A DNA stretch of 5,758 nt from the NCBI RefSeq assembly GCF_020969955.1, contig NZ_JAHDSX010000078.1:1-5758 (forward strand), in the 5' to 3' direction. Source of the stretch: Allobaculum fili. GTDB lineage: Bacteria; Bacillota_I; Bacilli_A; Erysipelotrichales; Erysipelotrichaceae. The translations under genes were made by a program, and so were the position numbers. Below, one piece after another: positions 1 to 5,758 of this stretch. Positions within the stretch are counted from its first letter, which is position 1; every line of letters starts with the position of its first letter. The notes under the pieces are model-generated. The model saw only the letters and a program-made list of their open reading frames with translations. It was not told where the DNA came from and did no database searches.

Positions 1-79
<79 letters not shown>

Positions 80-194
80 TATTGACTCAAACGCTTATGC
101 GTTTAATGTTTCGTGAATAAATGATTGCTCGAGTACTTTTTGTGATTTTAAGAATCGACGTTGTGTATTTCGAATTTCTTGATCTGTCTGTAAA

Positions 195-208
195 GTTTTC
201 AAAGAGCC
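195..208 (-). promoter_or_regulatory. boxA-like rRNA antitermination element in the 16S leader
   Basis: The minus strand reads GGCTCTTTGAAAAC. This is close to the boxA consensus TGCTCTTTAACAA and to the CTTTGAAAAC form that I recall from Firmicutes rrn leaders. It lies between the candidate promoters and the mature 16S 5' end. Confidence 0.5.
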
Positions 209-381
209 ATCTGCTTGTGAGAAACTCGATGCCTCTCACAAGGCTTGTTTATCATATCATCTGCAGAAATCTCTGTCAACAACTGTTTGTGAATTTCTTT
301 ATGATTTTCACTTAAGCTGTTTTCTTCGATATCTAAAGGTGATTTGATGCGTTTTGGAAGTCATTTCCTTAACGCTCACTT

Positions 382-410
382 AGAATATCACAGCATTTTC
401 TCCTATGCAA
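382..410 (-). promoter_or_regulatory. Candidate rrn promoter (proximal, P2)
   Basis: The minus strand reads TTGCAT (405-410), a 17-nt spacer ending in TGa (extended -10), then TATTCT (382-387). An A/T-rich UP-like tract (GAAAATGTTTTAAAAATTCACAAATAA) lies upstream. Assigned by eye only. Confidence 0.4.
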
Positions 411-508
411 GCCTTATTTGTGAATTTTTAAAACATTTTCACATCTAGGAATTGCTAGAGATTCAGCTGTGTTCTTCAAGCGGCTGTCTGCTTTCAAACA
501 GCTTTGTT

Positions 509-538
509 AAGATACTCCTTCTTTACGGAATCTGTCAA
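509..538 (-). promoter_or_regulatory. Candidate rrn promoter (distal, P1)
   Basis: The minus strand reads a consensus -35 TTGACA (533-538), an 18-nt spacer, then TATCTT (509-514). It is preceded by the A/T-rich GAGTATTTTAAT. Tandem promoters are typical of rrn operons. Assigned by eye only. Confidence 0.4.
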
Positions 539-713
539 ATTAAAATACTCTCGCCGCATTTTCCAGAAAATTGAAATAGTAAATTCCAGTCCTGGGCGAT
601 TTTTTTCGTTTCGTCTTTCTGGAAATTCTAACTTCCATTTCGAACTTAAATTCCAGTTTTCTTTCCTGCGAACCGCGCGTCTGCTGGATCTTCTGCCTGC
701 AGAACCTGGCAGA

Positions 714-842: not shown

Positions 843-1490
843 TTATTTCTGATCCATTTTCGCGAGCAGTCTGGGAACGATCAGGTAAGAAAGCACGACG
901 CAAAGCACCATAATGGCAAAGCATGTCCACAGAAAATCGGTCTGCATGCTGAAAGGGGCTGCATCGGCTGTGGCCATCGCTTTCGCCGAAGCCTCATTCA
1001 GTTTGATGCTCCACAGAGCAACGCAGGCACCGCCGGGCAGGAGAGATCCAAAAATACCCAGGATGAAGGCGCTCTTTGGCAGCATGGTGATCAGCGGAAT
1101 GCCAAAGCCGAGGGCGGAAAACGACAGAATCCAGCCGAGCAGAATATTGATCAGTACAACTTCCTGATCTTTTCCAAAGCCAAGACCATAGACGATTGCC
1201 AGACTGAGTCCGAACCCAAACAGTCCGCAAAGCAGACTGAGGATATATTTTTCGCGGATGGCGGTCGGTCTGGAAATGGGCAGTGCGGTCTGATACAGAT
1301 TCCATCCGCTCATTCGATCGGTAATGATCGACGCTACGCCCTGCATCAGAAAATAAATTGTAATATAGGAAATCAAGCCTTCACTGGCGTCCATCCAGAT
1401 CATGAAAATACTGATCAGGGCGAAGATTCCCAGCATTACAATCCACTGGGTTTTCAGCATCATGAAGTCCTTTTTCATAAGTCCTTTCAT
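843..1490 (-). CDS. ABC-2 type transporter permease (integral membrane subunit of the YtrA-type ABC system)
   Basis: This is a 215-aa ORF with about six long hydrophobic segments (for example WIVMLGIFALISIFMIW, ILSLLCGLFGFGLSLAIVYGLGF, LWTCFAIMVLCVVLSYLIV). An AAAGGAG RBS lies 6 nt upstream of the ATG. Its start overlaps the stop of the upstream ABC ATPase gene by 4 nt (ATGA). The function is inferred from context and hydropathy, not from a diagnostic motif. Confidence 0.8.
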   Translation of the reverse strand: MKGLMKKDFMMLKTQWIVMLGIFALISIFMIWMDASEGLISYITIYFLMQGVASIITDRMSGWNLYQTALPISRPTAIREKYILSLLCGLFGFGLSLAIVYGLGFGKDQEVVLINILLGWILSFSALGFGIPLITMLPKSAFILGIFGSLLPGGACVALWSIKLNEASAKAMATADAAPFSMQTDFLWTCFAIMVLCVVLSYLIVPRLLAKMDQK

Positions 1491-2353
1491 CGGCTTTCTC
1501 CTTTCCGCTGCCCTTTGGACAGCATGACGATCATTTCATCGAGCGTCGCCGGATGAATTGCATAATCCGGATACCGCCGGCTGAACTCGGTACGGTCTTT
1601 GACCAGCATTTCGGTATGCAGACTTTGCGCTCTTGCAGCCAGGATCAGCTGCTCATCGACGAACTGAACCTGATCCGCGGTCAGCTGGGCAATGCCAAAC
1701 CGATCGATTTCCTCACGGTCGAGCTCGAACAGGATTTTTCCGTCCTGAATGTAGAGAATCGAATCTGCAATCCGTTCCAGATCCGAAGTAATATGACTCG
1801 TCATCAAAATGGCATGGTTTTCGTCTTCCATGAATTCCTGCAGCAGATCCAGAATTTCTTCGCGTACGACCGGATCCAGTCCGGCGGTCGCCTCATCAAG
1901 CAGAAGCAGGTCCGGCTGATGCGCCAGTGCCGTCGCAATCGAGAGTTTCATGTACATGCCGCGGGAGAGATGGGCAATTTTCCGATCCAGCGGTACCTGA
2001 AAACGATCCAGAAAACGGAAGAAGTAGTCTTCCTGCCAGTTTTCATAAATCGTCTTCATGATGGACGAGATTTCTTTTGGCGTGAATGCGCCCGGCAGAC
2101 CTTTGGAGTCGCCGGAATAGCCGATTTGGTTGTGCAGGCGCGCATTGTCCAGGGCATTTTCGCCGTACATCAGAATTTCGCCGGACTGGGGAATGTCCTG
2201 TCCAAGAATGCATCGAATCGTTGTACTCTTTCCCGAGCCGTTTTCACCGACCATGCCGACAACCCGGCCGGCCGGGACGGTAAAGGAAACGTCCTTCAAA
2301 GAAAAATCCTTAAAGGCTTTATTGAGACGGGTTACTTTAAGTGCGTCTTTCAT
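1487..2353 (-). CDS. ABC transporter ATP-binding protein
   Basis: This is a 288-aa ORF. It has Walker A GENGSGKST (aa 36-44), an ABC signature variant LSRGMYMKLSIA, Walker B LLLLDEATAGLD and an H-loop MTSHITSD. It overlaps both the regulator stop and the permease start by 4 nt. Confidence 0.95.
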   Translation of the reverse strand: MKDALKVTRLNKAFKDFSLKDVSFTVPAGRVVGMVGENGSGKSTTIRCILGQDIPQSGEILMYGENALDNARLHNQIGYSGDSKGLPGAFTPKEISSIMKTIYENWQEDYFFRFLDRFQVPLDRKIAHLSRGMYMKLSIATALAHQPDLLLLDEATAGLDPVVREEILDLLQEFMEDENHAILMTSHITSDLERIADSILYIQDGKILFELDREEIDRFGIAQLTADQVQFVDEQLILAARAQSLHTEMLVKDRTEFSRRYPDYAIHPATLDEMIVMLSKGQRKGESR

Positions 2354-2736
2354 ACTTCGTCTTCCTCATACAGCAAAGAAACCAGATTCAGCAGCTCTTC
2401 CAGAGTCATCTGCGTTTCTTTCGCTTTTTTAATCAGCGCTTCCGCACAGGCTTCCACTTCTTTCTGTCTGGCTTCCTGCGCTGCCTGGCTGTCGATCTGG
2501 GCAACAACGGTTCCCCGCCCGACAGCCGACTCAATCAGGCCTTCCTGTTTCAGATCTTCGTAGGCTTTCTGAACGGTAATGACGCTGACTTTCAACATTT
2601 TTGCCAGAGCCCGCATGCTGGGAACCGACTGACCCGGGTTCAGCTTGCCGGAAAGGATCTGGCTTCGCATCTGTGTTTCGATCTGCTCATAAATAGGGAC
2701 GTCTCCCCGAAAGCTAAGAACGATTTCCAGTTCCAT
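2350..2736 (-). CDS. GntR-family transcriptional regulator, YtrA subfamily (short C-terminal domain)
   Basis: This is a 128-aa ORF. The N-terminal winged HTH is typical of GntR proteins: PIYEQIETQMRSQILSGKLNPGQSVPSMRALAKMLKVSVITVQKAYEDLKQEGLIESAVGRGTVVA. Only a helical tail of about 50 aa follows, as in YtrA-type regulators that precede ABC ATPase/permease genes. A GGAGA RBS lies about 10 nt upstream of the ATG. Confidence 0.93.
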   Translation of the reverse strand: MELEIVLSFRGDVPIYEQIETQMRSQILSGKLNPGQSVPSMRALAKMLKVSVITVQKAYEDLKQEGLIESAVGRGTVVAQIDSQAAQEARQKEVEACAEALIKKAKETQMTLEELLNLVSLLYEEDEV

Positions 2737-2800: not shown

Positions 2801-3376
2801 TTGGCAAGAGCTCCGCAAAAATATTCGAATGAGACCTTTTACGCGATGCATTTCCCGCTCCCTGTTAAAAGCCAGACAAAAAGGAAGAGAAACGCTTCGC
2901 CTGTCTTCTCTTCTTCTGGATGGAATCCATCGCTTGGATGGAAGCCATCGCTCATTGCGGATATAAACGGTCCGCTTATGAGCAAGGCGTGCATTTCTCT
3001 TCCTGATTTTGTATTGCGTTGTCTATTGGGTGTTGTATGGCAATTCGTTTCGCGCTTTGAATACGAGCTGGTATTCGGGCGGCTTAGTCGTGAACAGTCA
3101 GGCTGTGCAGCATTTCCACAAATCTATACGCAAATCGGCTACTGGAACGAAGTAGTCAAACGGAATCTTCCCAGAACTCATTTTCTGACCATCGATAACA
3201 ACGCCACCTTTACCAGCGCAGCCGGGATTGGCGCCTTCCCCTACTTTGTTTCCAACTGGCTTCCGCATGCGAATGAAGGCGTCGTCGTCCGTCCCGTCGA
3301 AGACATGACCATTCAGTACTGGCTCGTCTGTCTTCGCCAGAATCAGGAAATGGTCCGTTTCATTCGATCGCTCTGA
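2801..3376 (+). pseudogene. ORF of doubtful status; the C-terminal ~70 aa resemble the end of a LysR-type effector-binding domain (probable truncated remnant)
   Basis: This is a TTG-initiated 191-aa ORF. The tail LTIDNNATFTSAAGIGAFPYFVSNWLPHANEGVVVRPVEDMTIQYWLVCLRQNQEMVRFIRSL follows the LysR C-terminal pattern (x-aaGlGia-lP ... l-v-p ... lv-r ... fi-fl). Its codon third positions look like those of the real genes. The N-terminal ~100 aa look non-protein-like (KRKRNASPVFSSSGWNPSLGWKPS, which comes from translating the tandem repeat). No HTH is present in any + frame, and there is no room for a full ~300-aa LysR protein before the GntR gene. Confidence 0.25.
2917..2952. repeat. Tandem direct repeat, 2 x 18 bp (TGGATGGAATCCATCGCT / TGGATGGAAGCCATCGCT)
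   Basis: The two units (2917-2934 and 2935-2952) differ at one position. Each unit contains the dyad GATGG-N3-CCATC. Confidence 0.85.
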
Positions 3377-3533: not shown

Positions 3534-3592
3534 AAAAAAGACAAAGACAGGCTGCCCATCCGGTATTTTTTCCGTTTGAGCAGCCTGTTTTT
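3534..3592. terminator. Bidirectional rho-independent terminator between the ATPase gene and the + strand remnant
   Basis: The stem has 9 bp (3547-3555 ACAGGCTGC pairs with 3580-3588 GCAGCCTGT), with a small inner CGG/CCG stem. On the + strand UUUUCAAUUUGU follows. On the minus strand CUUUGUCUUUUUUC follows. It lies about 70 nt downstream of the ATPase stop (3657). The 24-nt loop is large for an intrinsic terminator. Confidence 0.6.
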
Positions 3593-3656: not shown

Positions 3657-4940
3657 TTAATGGATCAGACGCTCGTAGAAGCTTTTCTGCTGGCGGGCTT
3701 CCTCTTCAAACGCCTTCTGGACCTTCTGGTAAACCGGGTGGTCGAGGACCGGATAGCGCTGCGTGCGAAGCGGGCGGCTTCCGACACGGAAGATGATTTC
3801 TTTTCCGACCGGCATAGAGAGCACGTCTTCCAGCGGCAGATTTGCGCGAATGCTGACGTTTTTTGCCGTCTGCAAGTCCATGCCGCCAAGATAGACGTAT
3901 GTGTTGCAGTTGTTGATAATCGTCGTCGCATCCTCCCGTCCATACATTTTGTTCAGCTGAGATTCGGACTGCAGAAGAAGGGTAACGGAAATGTTCTTTT
4001 CGCGGAAAACCGAAATCATTTCCGGAAAGTTTTCGATGCAGCCGCCGCTCGCAAAGTCGTCGCAGATCATGTGTACGCCAATCGGCAGACGGCCGGAACC
4101 GCACGTATCCGCGAAGTGAAACAGCGTACGGAACACCTGGCCGTAAAAGATATTCAAATAATTCTGAAGACCATTGTTTGTGCTCGAAGTGGAAACAAAC
4201 AGAACGGTTTTCTTCCAGCCCATCTCCGCAATATCCAGCCTCTCCTTCTTGCGAAGCAGTTCCCGCATGGATGAAGGAAACAGGCGGTCGATTTTGGAGT
4301 TCAGATCGCTGAAAATACATCCGGCTGTCCGGATCGGCGTACTGACAAACGTTGACCAGCAGCGGGCCTCAAAGCTGTCCGGCGCAATTTCCAGAATTTC
4401 CCGGAATTCCTTATCCACGCTCGTCTGCACCAGATCGCGCGAATAGTCCAGGTGAATGCGGCTGTGAAACTGCAGCACCTCGTCCAGACCGGCTCCCGGA
4501 TGAAGGCGGCACACATGCGCAATTTCGGCGCTGAACAGCGAAGCAGCGGCCTGTGCCCAGTATGGATCGGCTTGCGAATACGGATTTTTCTGCCCGTCGC
4601 CCACGATGAGCGAGGTGGCAAAATACTCGATGTCTTCATCGGACATCATGTAATCGAGCGGATCAAAGCGGACATCCGATCGTTCCGGATCGATGAAATT
4701 CAGATCAATCACTTTGTAGCCGCGCTCTTCAAACAGACGGCGGTACGTATTGACCAGACGGCGCTTGGTGACGGTAACGACCAGAGACGATTCGGTCGTT
4801 TCCAGCAGGCGCGGTTCGCAGATGGACATCGTTTTTCCGCTCCCGGAAAAGCCGCAGACCATCACGTTGTTGTTGATGCCAGTCAGAGCGCAGTCGCTCG
4901 AATAAATCGCGCGATCGCCGAGAATGATTTTTTCACTCAT
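3657..4940 (-). CDS. Type IV coupling protein-like ATPase (VirD4/TraG/TraD family), short form without N-terminal transmembrane anchor
   Basis: This is a 427-aa ORF. Walker A is GFSGSGKT at aa 30-37. Walker B is VHMICDDF at aa 289-296. The family-typical block REKNISVTLLLQSESQLNKMYGREDATTIINNCNTYVYLGGMDLQTAKNVS follows the pattern R..gi..l.lQS.sQL...YG...a..i..Nc......g..D..TA. A helical insert with DPYWAQAAASLFSAEI resembles the T4CP all-alpha domain. A GGAGGG RBS lies 8 nt upstream, inside the end of the protease gene, and only 4 nt separate the two genes. Confidence 0.88.
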   Translation of the reverse strand: MSEKIILGDRAIYSSDCALTGINNNVMVCGFSGSGKTMSICEPRLLETTESSLVVTVTKRRLVNTYRRLFEERGYKVIDLNFIDPERSDVRFDPLDYMMSDEDIEYFATSLIVGDGQKNPYSQADPYWAQAAASLFSAEIAHVCRLHPGAGLDEVLQFHSRIHLDYSRDLVQTSVDKEFREILEIAPDSFEARCWSTFVSTPIRTAGCIFSDLNSKIDRLFPSSMRELLRKKERLDIAEMGWKKTVLFVSTSSTNNGLQNYLNIFYGQVFRTLFHFADTCGSGRLPIGVHMICDDFASGGCIENFPEMISVFREKNISVTLLLQSESQLNKMYGREDATTIINNCNTYVYLGGMDLQTAKNVSIRANLPLEDVLSMPVGKEIIFRVGSRPLRTQRYPVLDHPVYQKVQKAFEEEARQQKSFYERLIH

Positions 4941-4944
4941 ACGC

Positions 4945-5532
4945 TTATCCCTCCTGAATCAGTTCTCCCAGCTGTGCCTTTCCATCGCACAGCCCAAAAT
5001 CGATGGCTTCCTGCAAGGTGAAATACCGGTCTTTGGCGGACGCTTCCTCAATTTCCTGCACGCTCTTTTTCGTATGTGCAGCCAGAATTTCATGAATGCG
5101 TCCGGAATAGTCGGCGAGTCTTTTCATGACTTCCTTCAGCGATTCATGGTTTCCCGCAAACGAAGAATTCAGCAGAGGCTCATGAATCATGAGCTGGCTG
5201 TCTTCAAACATCAGACGCTTCGCGCCTGCCGCAAACAGAACGGCAGCCATCGAATAGCCTTTCTGCATGCAGACGGTATGGATGGGTGCCGGACTCGACT
5301 GCATGGCGTCATAAATCAGCAGGCCGGCCCCAACTTCCCCGCCGGGTGAATTGATATACAGATCAATGGGCTGACTGGGATCTTCCTCATTGAGTGTCAG
5401 CAGCTGCAAAACGATGCTGTTGGCTTTTTCTTCATCCACTTCTCCAAACACCAGGATGCGCCGTCTGGACAGATGCCGGGTTTCCATAGGAATCAGGGTG
5501 GTTCCCTGACAGGTCTTTTCACTCAGATACAT
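4945..5532 (-). CDS. clpP: ClpP-family (peptidase S14) serine protease paralogue
   Basis: This is a 195-aa ORF. It contains DLYINSPGGEVGAGLLIYDAMQ, CMQKGYSMAAVLFAAGAK, LMIHEP and AKDRYFTLQEAIDFGL. By eye these align to E. coli ClpP [39 protein letters not shown], MIHQP and ERDRFLSAPEAVEYGL. The catalytic Ser94, His117 and Asp168 are all retained. A strong AGGAGG RBS lies 6 nt upstream of the ATG. The symbol is given at family level only; this is probably not the housekeeping clpP. Confidence 0.9.
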   Translation of the reverse strand: MYLSEKTCQGTTLIPMETRHLSRRRILVFGEVDEEKANSIVLQLLTLNEEDPSQPIDLYINSPGGEVGAGLLIYDAMQSSPAPIHTVCMQKGYSMAAVLFAAGAKRLMFEDSQLMIHEPLLNSSFAGNHESLKEVMKRLADYSGRIHEILAAHTKKSVQEIEEASAKDRYFTLQEAIDFGLCDGKAQLGELIQEG

Positions 5533-5548
5533 AACTGGCCTCCTTTAC

Positions 5549-5613
5549 CAGGAAAGAAGAAGTTCGACCTGCACCTCGTCCGGGTCTGCAGGCTTTCCTT
5601 TTCTTCTTTCCTG
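5549..5613 (-). promoter_or_regulatory. Long compound hairpin in the 5' leader of the clpP-like operon, ending 4 nt before the SD
   Basis: The outer stem is 13 bp and perfect (5549-5561 CAGGAAAGAAGAA pairs with 5601-5613 TTCTTCTTTCCTG). The inner stem is 6 bp (5568-5573 CCTGCA pairs with 5587-5592 TGCAGG) with a 13-nt loop. No U-tract follows it on either strand, so it is not a classic terminator. Its function is unknown. Confidence 0.5.
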
Positions 5614-5669
5614 TCCTGATTCAGTTATACGAAGTAAGCGTCAAATAAAAGACGGGTATTTTCTCGACC

Positions 5670-5708
5670 GCCTCCTTGGGATAATTCCTTTATTCAAGGA
5701 GGCTTTTT
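5670..5708 (+). promoter_or_regulatory. Terminator-like hairpin that sequesters the SD of the downstream + strand gene
   Basis: The stem is 9 bp and perfect (5670-5678 GCCTCCTTG pairs with 5695-5703 CAAGGAGGC) with a 16-nt loop. It is followed by TTTTT (5704-5708) and then by C and the ATG at 5710. The 3' arm contains the AAGGAGG Shine-Dalgarno. Confidence 0.5.
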
Positions 5709-5709
5709 C

Positions 5710-5758
5710 ATGGAATCAATCATCCCTGCAATCGATCTCGGTATCGATTTCTCCAAAG
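5710..5758 (+). CDS. 5' end of an unidentified protein-coding gene (runs off window), N-terminus MESIIPAIDLGIDFSK
   Basis: The ATG at 5710 is preceded by AAGGAGG (5696-5702) with a 7-nt spacer. The frame stays open to the window end. Only 16 codons are visible. The AIDLG motif is reminiscent of the phosphate-1 motif of actin/Hsp70-like (ASKHA) ATPases, but this is weak evidence. Confidence 0.45.
   Translation, partial: MESIIPAIDLGIDFSK

Follow-up and report, generated by a model that had tools for sequence, protein, structure and literature searches.

The locus analysed here raises the question of why a ClpP-like peptidase should be encoded next to a soluble ATPase of the type IV coupling protein (T4CP) class, and what the two proteins might do together. 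T4CPs are RecA/FtsK-HerA-class motors and are not AAA+ proteins. The characterised partners of ClpP are all AAA+ unfoldases, and the characterised T4CPs all act at a membrane-bound secretion channel; no T4CP is known to power ClpP or to unfold proteins. The window is a whole contig of Allobaculum fili, 5,758 bp in length, in which an earlier note had recognised the two genes and proposed an ATPase-protease conflict module. We put the probability at about one half that a specialised ClpP and a dedicated soluble T4CP-class ATPase form the core of a modular conflict-type unit.

The clpP-like gene lies upstream of the ATPase gene (Table 1). Its stop codon (TAA, 4947-4945) is separated from the ATPase start codon (ATG, 4940-4938) by the 4 nt GCGT (4941-4944), and the ATPase ribosome-binding site is embedded in the end of clpP, exactly as first described. 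The clpP ribosome-binding site stands 6 nt from its own start codon (ATG, 5532-5530). ClpP and the ATPase would be made from a single, translationally coupled transcript. The structured leader and the terminator proposed in the earlier note were both borne out by folding. The 116-nt leader folds at -39 kcal/mol in RNAfold (z = -3.15; 1 of 200 shuffles is equally stable). The inner stem of its hairpin is formed by CCTGCA and TGCAGG, and the minimum free energy fold contains an extra outer helix in which 5'-AUAACUG pairs with the start-codon region. An Rfam search of the leader matched no family. The leader differs by only one loop base from that of an IS-free Allobaculum locus (L060), which indicates that it is native and not IS-derived. 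The terminator stem comprises 12 G+C-rich base pairs followed by a T-run, and none of 200 shuffles was equally stable (z = -4.98).

Table 1. Coordinates of the features of the gene pair and its borders in the window.
Feature	Position	Strand	Basis or detail
clpP-like serine peptidase gene, 195 aa	4945..5532	-	ORF and Pfam CLP_protease
Soluble T4CP-like P-loop ATPase gene, 427 aa	3657..4940	-	ORF and Pfam/NCBIfam
ATPase ribosome-binding site GGAGGG	4949..4954	-	Within final clpP codons; read from sequence
clpP ribosome-binding site AGGAGG	5539..5544	-	Read from sequence
Leader hairpin	5549..5613	-	RNAfold; outer stem 13 bp, CAGGAAAGAAGAA / TTCTTCTTTCCTG
Intrinsic terminator 3' of ATPase gene	3547..3588	-	ACAGGCUGCUCA...UGGGCAGCCUGU then U-run
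IS66-family insertion end	5634..5758	+	Terminal repeat GTAAGCG...; first IS ORF from 5710

The peptidase had been called ClpP-like, with Ser94, His117 and Asp168 as catalytic residues, and these assignments stand. It matches Pfam CLP_protease (PF00574; MEROPS family S14) at 151.2 bits (gathering cutoff 20.2; E 3.6e-44) and aligns with E. coli ClpP over residues 5-184 (E 1.4e-34), with a catalytic triad of Ser94, His117 and Asp168 in register with Ser97, His122 and Asp171. It falls below the curated NCBIfam cutoffs for housekeeping ClpP (129.3 against 308.6 for TIGR00493; 149.7 against 249 for NF001368). As judged from its sequence, the protein is a divergent ClpP paralogue. The catalytic Ser and His are retained in all 24 paired ClpPs and the Asp in 21 of them, with Asn in L007 and Gly in L013 and L014. 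In the 120 closest ClpP homologues, taken regardless of pairing with the ATPase, Ser and His never vary, and 115 have the Asp.

The paired ClpPs differ from those of ClpXP, ClpAP and ClpCP at the surface that receives the unfoldase. In the pocket for the IGF/LGF loop, Phe82 is replaced by Ser or Ala in 24 of 24 paired ClpPs, and none of the top 120 homologues has an aromatic residue there; Tyr62 is mostly Leu and Tyr60 mostly Asp. The window ClpP has Asp57, Tyr59 and Ser79 at the positions of Tyr60, Tyr62 and Phe82. The N-terminal pore loops are also changed and read 'MNVQVKSSNGITLVP' where LVPxVIE is canonical. Two residues are inserted in the handle, 'ERDRF' is replaced by 'SFDHYF', and the E/D-R 'sensor' residues are altered; the handle and sensor changes may bear on assembly of a tetradecameric double ring. 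The housekeeping ClpP of locus L015, which is encoded in a tig-clpP-clpX operon, retains the canonical residues. The loss of Phe82 together with the remodelled N-terminus and handle fits a putative partner other than ClpX.

The candidate partner scores best to T4CPs by both sequence and fold, in agreement with the earlier assignment, which had also placed the Walker A lysine correctly at Lys36. The matches are to T4SS-DNA_transf (PF02534; 125.1 bits, 4.5e-36), TraG-D_C (PF12696; 73.5 bits, 1.9e-20) and TrwB_AAD_bind (PF10412; 45.1 bits, 8.3e-12), all of which exceed the Pfam gathering score, and the NCBIfam model NF045973 'VirD4-like, CD1115 family' scores 245.8 bits, marginally under its cutoff of 250. 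Walker A spans Gly30 to Thr37, Walker B comprises Asp294 and Asp295, and a QSxxQL...YG motif is present. An AF2 monomer model (pLDDT 82.9, pTM 0.85) was compared with solved structures by Foldseek, and the top matches were Cagbeta (8dol; E 3e-14, TM 0.67-0.69), TrwB and DotL, with TM values of 0.52-0.69 for the three T4CPs; HerA and HerA-effector complexes form the second tier. A profile of the ATPase family searched against PDB sequences retrieved nothing at E <= 0.001; the link to solved T4CP structures came from the fold search only.

The ATPase shares the nucleotide-binding and all-alpha domain fold and the Walker motifs of TrwB, VirD4, TraG/TraD, Cagbeta and DotL, but it lacks their N-terminal transmembrane (TM) anchor. 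The view of the earlier note that it is soluble holds by hydropathy: no TM-like segment was detected, and the maximum 19-residue value is 0.83. Walker A lies at about residue 30 in the soluble clade but at residues 139-168 in the canonical T4CPs recovered by the same scan, which possess two TM segments. A cyanobacterial outlier, L041, has one TM segment and Walker A at residue 117. The soluble ATPases are monophyletic on a long branch, and the window ATPase is only 25-29% identical to canonical T4CPs. A plasmid database gives just 27-28% identity, again to canonical 'CD1115-family' T4CPs. The clade has many members (after clustering at 50%, each of the best 150 representatives exceeds 289 bits), its ATPase motifs are invariant, and about 65 C-terminal residues (364-427), which lie beyond the T4CP Pfam match, form a conserved segment of its own.

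The earlier note asked whether the pair recurs as a unit across genomes, and it does so. Of 27 close-family loci, 20 have ClpP adjoining the ATPase: in 18 it lies upstream with both genes on one strand, and in L013 and L014 it lies downstream. The gene order is reversed in three lineages overall. The deeper subfamilies L064 and L065-67 retain the pairing, with identities to the window proteins of 36-39% for the ATPase and 37-41% for ClpP. Of the 23 distinct pairs, 22 have genes that overlap or lie only 2-22 nt apart. The pairwise distances among the ClpPs correlate strongly with those among the ATPases (r = 0.92, Mantel p = 2e-4); the two proteins co-diverge though their flanking genes vary between loci. 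The pair is found in many human and animal gut Firmicutes with a patchy distribution among genomes, and one variant is present in more than 1,000 sequence-collection blocks, mostly human-gut metagenome assemblies. Comparison of these loci indicates that the pairing is not due to chance; ClpP and the ATPase probably make up a functional unit that is conserved and moves horizontally.

Seven close-family loci (L016-L021 and L026) carry the ATPase with no adjoining ClpP, and one such group is nested inside the ClpP-linked clade; the ATPase can therefore apparently occur without a neighbouring ClpP. The alignment columns conserved in ClpP-linked ATPases and altered in ClpP-less ones are limited to Gly21, Pro43, Phe82 and Phe270. 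These were considered as interface-specific residues and set aside, since they track the ancestry of one clade and are uninformative. Fusions of ClpP to the ATPase were sought among the top 150 representatives and in both homologue lists, and none was found. Seven long matches (P0298, P0319, P0328, P0395, P0426, P0430 and P0439) were rejected as Rosetta-stone fusions: their extra segments are not ClpP and consist of an additional N-terminal domain or TPR-like C-terminal tails.

These comparisons bear on whether the peptidase is simply an ordinary second proteostasis ClpP that works with ClpX or ClpC beside a functionally meaningless ATPase neighbour. Many Firmicutes have two clpP genes, and the alignment with E. 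coli ClpP is full-length. We nevertheless regard this as very improbable, because the adjacency survives sequence divergence of 36-56% and a reversal of gene order, the two proteins co-diverge, the docking pocket and handle are remodelled, and the locus is patchily distributed among variable flanks. The pair is accessory, in contrast to the housekeeping ClpXP, ClpAP and ClpCP systems.

The window itself says little about the neighbours. One edge holds a 16S rRNA gene, represented by its 5' end (1-78, minus strand), and the other an IS66-family element, inserted 101 nt upstream of the clpP start codon; the gene calls of L001 include TnpB_IS66 and DDE_Tnp_IS66, and homology to the IS-free locus L060 begins at window position 5633. 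The IS66 element is outside the module and cuts the pair off from its native upstream neighbours. An IS66 element also adjoins the pair at locus L056. The earlier remark that the 5,758-bp window holds no relaxase, VirB4, capsid or portal gene is correct, but the contig is cut off by the 16S rRNA gene end and IS66, so such an absence is weak evidence on its own.

A wider survey was more informative. No relaxase, VirB4 or other conjugation-cluster protein was found within about 10 kb in approximately 25 distinct pair contexts, whereas the canonical T4CPs of the same scan (L028-L042) are all located in conjugation clusters and never beside ClpP. It is quite improbable, in our view, that the locus derives from or serves a conjugative element, with an ATPase descended from a coupling protein by loss of the membrane anchor and a ClpP that an integrative and conjugative element uses for processing or carries as cargo. 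Such an origin would agree with the conjugative T4CPs being the top sequence and fold matches and with the IS66 elements beside the window and L056 loci. The size of the soluble clade, its invariant motifs, its low identity to canonical T4CPs and the missing conjugation genes together argue for long-term selection for a separate function.

The least probable of the readings considered is a phage or satellite morphogenesis module, in which the ClpP-like protein would be a prohead protease and the ATPase would be of packaging type. The peptidase does match the phage head-maturation families phrog_94 (3.8e-33) and NF045542 (90.6 bits), but the latter falls short of its cutoff (120), and models of cellular ClpP give a higher score (149.7 bits). 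The ATPase has no PHROG match, identity in a phage database is at most 31%, no relative was found among 2.9 million IMG/VR contigs, and no capsid, portal or terminase gene is present in any pair flank. L015 encodes a further ClpP between proteins of about 440 aa, an arrangement that looked phage-like and was considered as a portal-protease-capsid module but discarded; its sequence and neighbours are those of the housekeeping tig-clpP-clpX operon. The earlier note had named several computational outcomes that would speak against it, namely homologous pairs confined to conjugative or phage-head loci, an ATPase closer to another family and a lack of synteny, and none of them was found.

The flanks point in another direction. 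In IS-free Allobaculum, the genes directly upstream of the pair encode a PP2C phosphatase, a kinase of 1,441 aa and a protein of 677 aa, and at least five further lineages, all distant, have this trio together with the pair. In L008 the kinase orthologue has a Card1-like nuclease domain; kinases with this domain yield PADLOC matches to PD-T4-6, MkoA and PglW-like proteins. In several lineages a YbjN-like gene overlaps or abuts clpP on its upstream side and is translationally coupled to it; in others RyR-domain proteins accompany the pair or a Card1-like nuclease lies downstream. Card1-like nuclease domains recur beside the pair, in some cases as part of the kinase and in others encoded by a gene of their own. 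Further neighbours include two TIR proteins with a NADAR protein, Cas13a, nSTAND ATPases, a RAMP protein, a HerA-like ATPase and a JAB-E1 fusion, together with type III-B CRISPR genes. No CRISPR array was present in the four flanks searched. About half of the pair contexts consist of plain housekeeping genes. A universal third gene was considered and rejected, since the immediate flanking genes are homologous only within sub-clades. The description of the locus as a self-contained bicistron is accordingly only partly right: the pair is real, but its autonomy was overstated, given the trio, YbjN-like or Card1-like genes found elsewhere.

By guilt by association, this neighbourhood suggests that the pair may have a defence role. 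PADLOC-DB v2.0, which includes IetAS and the HerA systems, returned no family for ClpP or the ATPase at E <= 0.01, and no description of a ClpP/T4CP-like pairing was found in the literature searched; the combination appears to be undescribed, as had been supposed. IetAS, attributed to Gao et al. in 2020, is reportedly a defence pair of an ATPase and a subtilisin-like protease. Our locus would resemble it as a two-gene combination of an ATPase and a serine protease with a proposed defence role, by analogy only; both protein families are unrelated to those of IetAS, and neither IetA nor IetS was matched by PADLOC.

A closer parallel is offered by Sir2-HerA and DUF4297-HerA, in which a hexameric ATPase of the same superfamily and an enzymatic effector form a two-gene operon in defence islands. 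By analogy, the T4CP-like hexamer may serve as a DNA-end or DNA-translocating sensor and scaffold, co-regulated with ClpP and not stacked on it ring on ring. ClpP would then be a separate effector or processing protease that acts alone, acts with host ClpX or ClpC, or exerts toxin-antitoxin-like control by degrading a protein that inhibits the nuclease encoded nearby. The rank of HerA and HerA-effector complexes as the next-best structural matches, the recurrent Card1-like nuclease domains and the clade ATPases without an adjacent ClpP all lean this way. We consider the arrangement rather unlikely, however, because ClpP peptidases are self-compartmentalised and require an unfoldase for protein substrates, the canonical docking-pocket residues needed for host ClpX or ClpC are lost, and translational coupling with co-divergence at r = 0.92 better fits stoichiometric partners. 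The pair also differs from the HerA systems in that its effector is a self-compartmentalised peptidase instead of Sir2 or a nuclease, and its T4CP-type ATPase has no HAS-barrel and is not matched by the PADLOC HerA models.

A dedicated ClpP and T4CP-class ATPase acting together resemble ClpXP, ClpAP and ClpCP in the full-length ClpP homologue with its Ser-His-Asp triad, and resemble a clpP-clpX operon in the placement of a peptidase gene beside a P-loop ATPase whose nearest structural relatives are hexameric rings; they depart from these machines in the T4CP (FtsK/HerA-superfamily) fold of the ATPase, which is not AAA+. A hexameric ATPase ring would occupy the place of ClpX, ClpA or ClpC, pick a specific protein or nucleoprotein substrate, and use ATP to deliver it to the ClpP-like chamber or to gate that chamber. 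The remodelled ClpX/ClpA docking pocket of the paired ClpPs is the one molecular observation that speaks for such an unfoldase-peptidase machine; we infer the 6:7 docking, unfolding or translocation by the T4CP motor, the substrate and the defence phenotype. The pair would be the constant core of a modular system of conflict type, probably directed against mobile elements. Its lineage-specific partners would supply sensing, adaptor or effector functions: the kinase-nuclease, PP2C and a protein of 600-680 aa in Allobaculum, and elsewhere RyR-domain proteins, a Card1-like nuclease or a YbjN-like adaptor that resembles secretion chaperones. Small chaperone adaptors pass substrates to T4CPs, as in DotL-IcmS/IcmW and VirD4-VirE1. 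The YbjN-like (type III secretion-chaperone-like) gene directly upstream of the pair in several lineages may be comparable, a likeness that derives from its domain family; the window has no such gene.

A more specific version is possible, and we advance it tentatively as doubtful in its full extent: the non-AAA+ T4CP-class ring might capture proteins of invading DNA (relaxases, terminal proteins or phage proteins) or a self-inhibitor and feed them to its dedicated ClpP. This would constitute a new class of immune protease that plugs into kinase-nuclease, chaperone-like and cyclic-oligoadenylate-type partner modules. If ClpP and the ATPase form a conserved, co-evolving machine, it would represent a new way of powering a compartmentalised protease; if they work as proposed, coupling proteins would have a new, soluble job; and if the unit is an immune module, it is a system type that current defence catalogues have missed. 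The pair occurs in cultured bacteria, namely Butyrivibrio sp. CB08 and Allobaculum spp., which makes the hypothesis directly testable. In Allobaculum sp. Allo2, an IS66 element has inserted, the kinase gene is in fragments and the ATPase gene is frameshifted near codon 358; this locus looks to be decaying.

The gene pair is supported as a conserved, mobile two-gene core, and its ClpP-like peptidase and T4CP-like ATPase (VirD4/TraG/TrwB fold; WP_230268508.1, Allobaculum fili) most likely work together. Both open reading frames are intact and located on the same strand of the window, which is the entire 5,758-bp contig under which the ATPase protein is recorded. A gap of 4 nt separates the clpP stop codon (4947-4945) from the start codon of the ATPase gene (4940-4938), and clpP carries its own AGGAGG motif 6 nt ahead of its ATG. 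The two reading frames, the short gap and the embedded ribosome-binding site described in the earlier note, the last as a GGAGGG motif, were all read in the window sequence, and the catalytic residues (S94, H117 and D168 in the peptidase, Lys36 in Walker A of the ATPase) are at the positions that it gave. The structured leader and the terminator that it proposed are also real. The leader matches no Rfam family; it was compared among Allobaculum strains only, which differ by one loop base and provide no covariation evidence. In the minimum free energy fold (window 5525-5640, minus strand), an outer helix forms between 5'-AUAACUG, located at the IS junction just within native sequence, and a CAGUUAU that overlaps the start codon of clpP. 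The translation of clpP might be structurally gated by this predicted helix. NCBI annotates both products generically, as 'ClpP family protease' and 'type IV secretory system conjugative DNA transfer family protein'.

The peptidase matches Pfam CLP_protease (3.6e-44), and its residues 5-184 align with E. coli ClpP without large gaps (E 1.4e-34), which identifies it as a genuine ClpP-type peptidase; the prohead protease identity was rejected, with NF045542 scoring 90.6 against a cutoff of 120. Scores against cellular ClpP models reach 149.7 bits, still below the equivalog cutoffs, and the reading as an ordinary ClpP2 is contradicted by several tests. All 24 T4CP-linked ClpPs retain the catalytic Ser and His, and the surface of these proteins is remodelled. 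F82 (E. coli numbering) is replaced by Ser or Ala in 24 of 24, Y62 is mostly Leu, Y60 mostly Asp and A45 mostly Lys. The N-terminus is 'MNVQVKSSNGITLVP' compared with LVPxVIE in canonical ClpP, the handle contains a two-residue insertion ('HEPLLGNRVGGNSSSIKS'), and 'ERDRF' is changed to 'SFDHYF' ('AKDRYF' in Allobaculum). Residue 82 is non-aromatic in all 120 of the closest ClpP homologues. The canonical residues are kept in the housekeeping ClpP of a tig-clpP-clpX operon, which by chance falls in one surveyed locus (L015). ClpX, ClpA and ClpC insert their IGF/LGF loops into the pocket that the altered positions form, and the loss of these pocket residues is consistent with a partner other than these three.

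The T4CP-like nature of the ATPase, as first proposed, is borne out by its Pfam matches (T4SS-DNA_transf, 4.5e-36; TraG-D_C, 1.9e-20; TrwB_AAD_bind, 8.3e-12), its best NCBIfam model (NF045973, 'VirD4-like conjugal transfer protein, CD1115 family'; 245.8 bits, cutoff 250) and its predicted fold. The AF2 model, built on a 37-sequence alignment (pLDDT 82.9, pTM 0.85), has T4CPs as its best structural matches: Cagbeta (8dol; E 3e-14, TM 0.67-0.69), TrwB (1e9s/1gl6/1gki; TM 0.55-0.68) and DotL (6sz9). Walker A (G30-T37), Walker B (D294, D295) and a QSxSQ...YG motif are invariant in the family. Compared with the canonical, membrane-anchored T4CPs, which in the same scan exhibit two N-terminal transmembrane segments and Walker A at 139-168, the window ATPase has no hydrophobic segment and its Walker A starts at about residue 30. 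A cyanobacterial protein (L041) is the exception among the canonical T4CPs, with one transmembrane segment and Walker A at 117. Residues 364-427 of the ATPase fall outside the Pfam T4CP match and are strongly conserved (N367, P369, L370, V373, L374, P377, G379, R385, G387, P390, T393, R395, Y396 and Y404).

A pattern search across 185,579 species genomes, with tblastn confirmation, yielded 39 loci, to which the Allobaculum genome locus L001 and two loci from close-homologue look-ups (L002, L003) were added. Of the 27 close-family loci (40-56% identity, ~420 aa), 20 have ClpP next to the ATPase; it precedes the ATPase on the same strand in 18 and directly follows it in L013 and L014. Conversely, none of the 15 canonical T4CPs (L028-L042; 21-29% identity, ~600 aa) has a ClpP beside it, and nearly all share a conserved conjugation cluster. 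Further look-ups (L043-L059) found ClpP adjacent in all but L059, a 1.9-kb contig too short to reveal the region upstream of the ATPase. When distant ClpP homologues (37-41% identity) served as the start, a T4CP-like gene (36-39% identity) was again adjacent; the ATPase comes first in Butyrivibrio sp. CB08 (L064), where the genes overlap, and ClpP comes first in L065-L067. The genes overlap or lie 2-22 nt apart in 22 of 23 distinct pairs. ClpP and ATPase have co-diverged (pairwise distances, r = 0.92, Mantel p = 2e-4), a correlation that inherited linked genes would also give; unlike these two, the flanking genes do not travel with the pair across loci. In a neighbour-joining tree, every soluble ATPase falls in a single clade on a long branch, with the ClpP-less L021 basal and the ClpP-less L016-L020 nested. 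The best 150 representatives (50% clustering level) all exceed 289 bits, and 1,601 reach E <= 1e-30, canonical T4CPs probably among them.

In this survey, the pair is conserved as a unit independently of T4SS and phage genes: none of its flanks contains a gene for a T4SS component, relaxase, capsid, portal or terminase. A conjugation relic is contradicted by several tests, including the absence of T4SS and relaxase genes from these flanks; plasmid matches are only 27-28% identical and are to canonical T4CPs. A phage morphogenesis module is likewise contradicted by several tests, including the absence of capsid, portal and terminase flank genes and of any relative in IMG/VR; identity in the phage collection is at most 31%.

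The simplest mechanism would be ATP-dependent proteolysis with a T4CP-type ring in place of the AAA+ partner. In this putative machine the ATPase would dock on ClpP and unfold substrates, and the pair would have a role in immunity. A YbjN protein, secretion-chaperone-like, would be the adaptor in some lineages, with sensing or effector roles for the kinase, phosphatase and nuclease modules. In the main rival reading, the two products are still functionally linked but form no ring-on-ring machine: a HerA-like sensor or scaffold would work with a separate protease, possibly controlling an adjacent nuclease. HerA and HerA-effector complexes are the second-rank structural matches of the ATPase model, far weaker than the T4CPs. 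The pair belongs to the ATPase-protease modules as a kind, and there is a real chance that its mechanism has no precedent, in which case the ATPase would be the first ClpP partner that is not an AAA+ protein. No PADLOC-DB v2.0 model matches either protein, and full-text literature searches found no paper on a ClpP/T4CP-like pairing. The idea of the earlier note is partly supported: its module is real and undescribed, but it is not fully self-contained, given its flanking gene sets, and its function is a proposal.

These sets recur without being universal and are scattered over the ATPase tree. The K set (Allobaculum, L006, L008, L011, L012, L057) comprises a 590-680-aa protein without a Pfam match, a PP2C phosphatase and a Ser/Thr kinase of ~1,400 aa whose C-terminal domain is a Card1-like PD-(D/E)xK nuclease. 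The kinase matches PADLOC models of PD-T4-6, MkoA and PglW kinases and also CARF-nuclease models, and the trio probably constitutes a defence system by itself. It often occurs with a small RyR-domain protein (L003, L011, L012) or a TPR-RyR fusion (L008). In the Y set (L002, L004, L007, L048-52, L057, L058, L013, L014), a YbjN-like protein of 200-225 aa overlaps or abuts the first gene of the pair. The S set (L002, L043-47, L053-56) combines an OmpA-like protein and about eight unknown genes with a second, divergent ATPase of the T4CP/HerA-like type. In a divergent cluster of about ten genes, which recurs near the pair in three arrangements, the second ATPase has 434-474 aa with weak PADLOC matches to mad8 and HerA, the OmpA-like protein has ~420 aa, the unknown proteins have 90-415 aa, and Endonuclease_NS_2 and an M48 peptidase are sometimes present. 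The Card1 set is a stand-alone Card1-like nuclease (L064); the N-terminal half of this nuclease looks CARF-like by eye. It belongs to a compact four-gene islet of a cultured isolate, flanked by glycolysis and sugar-metabolism genes, and this islet is probably the best experimental entry point.

Several further neighbours are of a defence type. L057 encodes two TIR proteins together with a NADAR and a GreA/B-N protein; L065-67 have Cas13a, nSTAND ATPases and a RAMP protein; one surveyed locus carries type III-B Cmr and CARF genes; a HerA-like ATPase (L008) and a JAB-E1 fusion (L002) are further examples. The left flank of L065-L067 alternates between nSTAND ATPases with the RAMP protein and Cas13a with a TPR protein, and the conserved >1,135-aa protein that follows the pair there has a faint RdRP match. 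The L002 island, which looks like an unexplored conflict island, also encodes proteins of at least 2,952 aa and of 899 aa, HD-domain and transglutaminase-core proteins and six small proteins (~100-200 aa); its JAB-E1 (ThiF) fusion has 561 aa. Among 107 neighbours in ten further loci, Pfam matches are otherwise mostly to unrelated housekeeping genes (PEPCK, SecA, CPSase, aconitase, glycosyltransferases), so that the contexts divide roughly in half between conflict-type and ordinary chromosome.

Coordinates of features in the window and in surveyed loci
Feature	Location	Strand	Basis or remark
16S rRNA gene 5' end, cut by contig end	window 1-78	-	Rfam RF00177, 58.4 bits
Operon: GntR-family regulator, ABC ATPase, ABC-2 permease	window 843-2736	-	stop/start codons overlapping
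ORF convergent with ATPase gene	window 2801-3376	+	191 aa
Same ORF	L060 11565-12203	-	called 212 aa
Terminator	window 3547-3588		z = -4.98
T4CP-like ATPase, 427 aa	window 3657-4940	-	ORF call
ClpP-like peptidase, 195 aa	window 4945-5532	-	ORF call
GGAGGG motif, within final clpP codons	window 4954-4949	-	sequence
Leader hairpin	window 5549-5613		-39 kcal/mol, z = -3.15
IS66-family terminal repeat (GTAAGCG...) and first ORF	window 5634-5758	+	right end of window
IS66-family element, three ORFs	L001 7505-9823
K-set trio upstream of pair	L060 1443-9151; L008 2435-9132; L012 23-6522; L011 455-8220; L057 1-2581		six lineages
RyR-domain proteins adjoining pair	L003 3066-3479; L011 8478-8750; L012 6525-6797; L008 2044-2322		PF02026
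S-set-type cluster near pair, about ten genes	L053 729-9359; L056 2684-12411 (-); L002 18287-21263		three arrangements
Islet: HTH_3, T4CP-like ATPase, ClpP, Card1-like nuclease	L064 5283-8847		Butyrivibrio sp. CB08, GCA_003625485.1
Pair region: 119-aa protein before pair; 798-aa and >1,135-aa conserved proteins after	L065-L067 6592-14591
Island around pair	L002 1-8547 and 11366-18210		very common in human gut

The IS66-family element entered the locus at a site 101 nt ahead of the clpP ATG, with the leader hairpin on the native side of the junction; an IS66 fragment also lies just upstream of clpP in another family member (L056). This element and the rRNA operon account for the breaking of the assembly into a 5.8-kb contig. 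The stretch at window 80-540 is AT-rich and would contain the promoter region of the rRNA genes. In the Allobaculum contigs that lack the IS (L060, L062, L063), the order starts with proteins of 252 and 677 aa, a PP2C phosphatase (329 aa) and a protein kinase (1,441 aa); after a 257-nt gap come ClpP and the ATPase, and then an opposite-strand 212-aa gene, the GntR regulator, ABC ATPase and ABC-2 permease genes and the rRNA operon. Three features of Allobaculum sp. Allo2 (L001) point to decay of the locus in that strain: it carries the IS, its kinase is broken into fragments and its ATPase gene has a frameshift near codon 358. The frameshift replaces the conserved C-terminal 65-70 residues of the ATPase (L001 11657-11872), and the product is nonetheless annotated as intact, with 424 aa. 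The kinase is also fragmented in L061. The GntR/ABC operon, linked to the pair in Allobaculum only, resembles the staphylococcal phenol-soluble-modulin exporter regulon; its best NCBIfam matches (regulator PmtR-like, 119 bits; ABC ATPase PmtA-like, 215.5 bits) are all below equivalog cutoffs. The convergent ORF has no Pfam or NCBIfam match; its C-terminal half resembles by eye the end of a LysR-type substrate-binding domain, so that the ORF may be a remnant.
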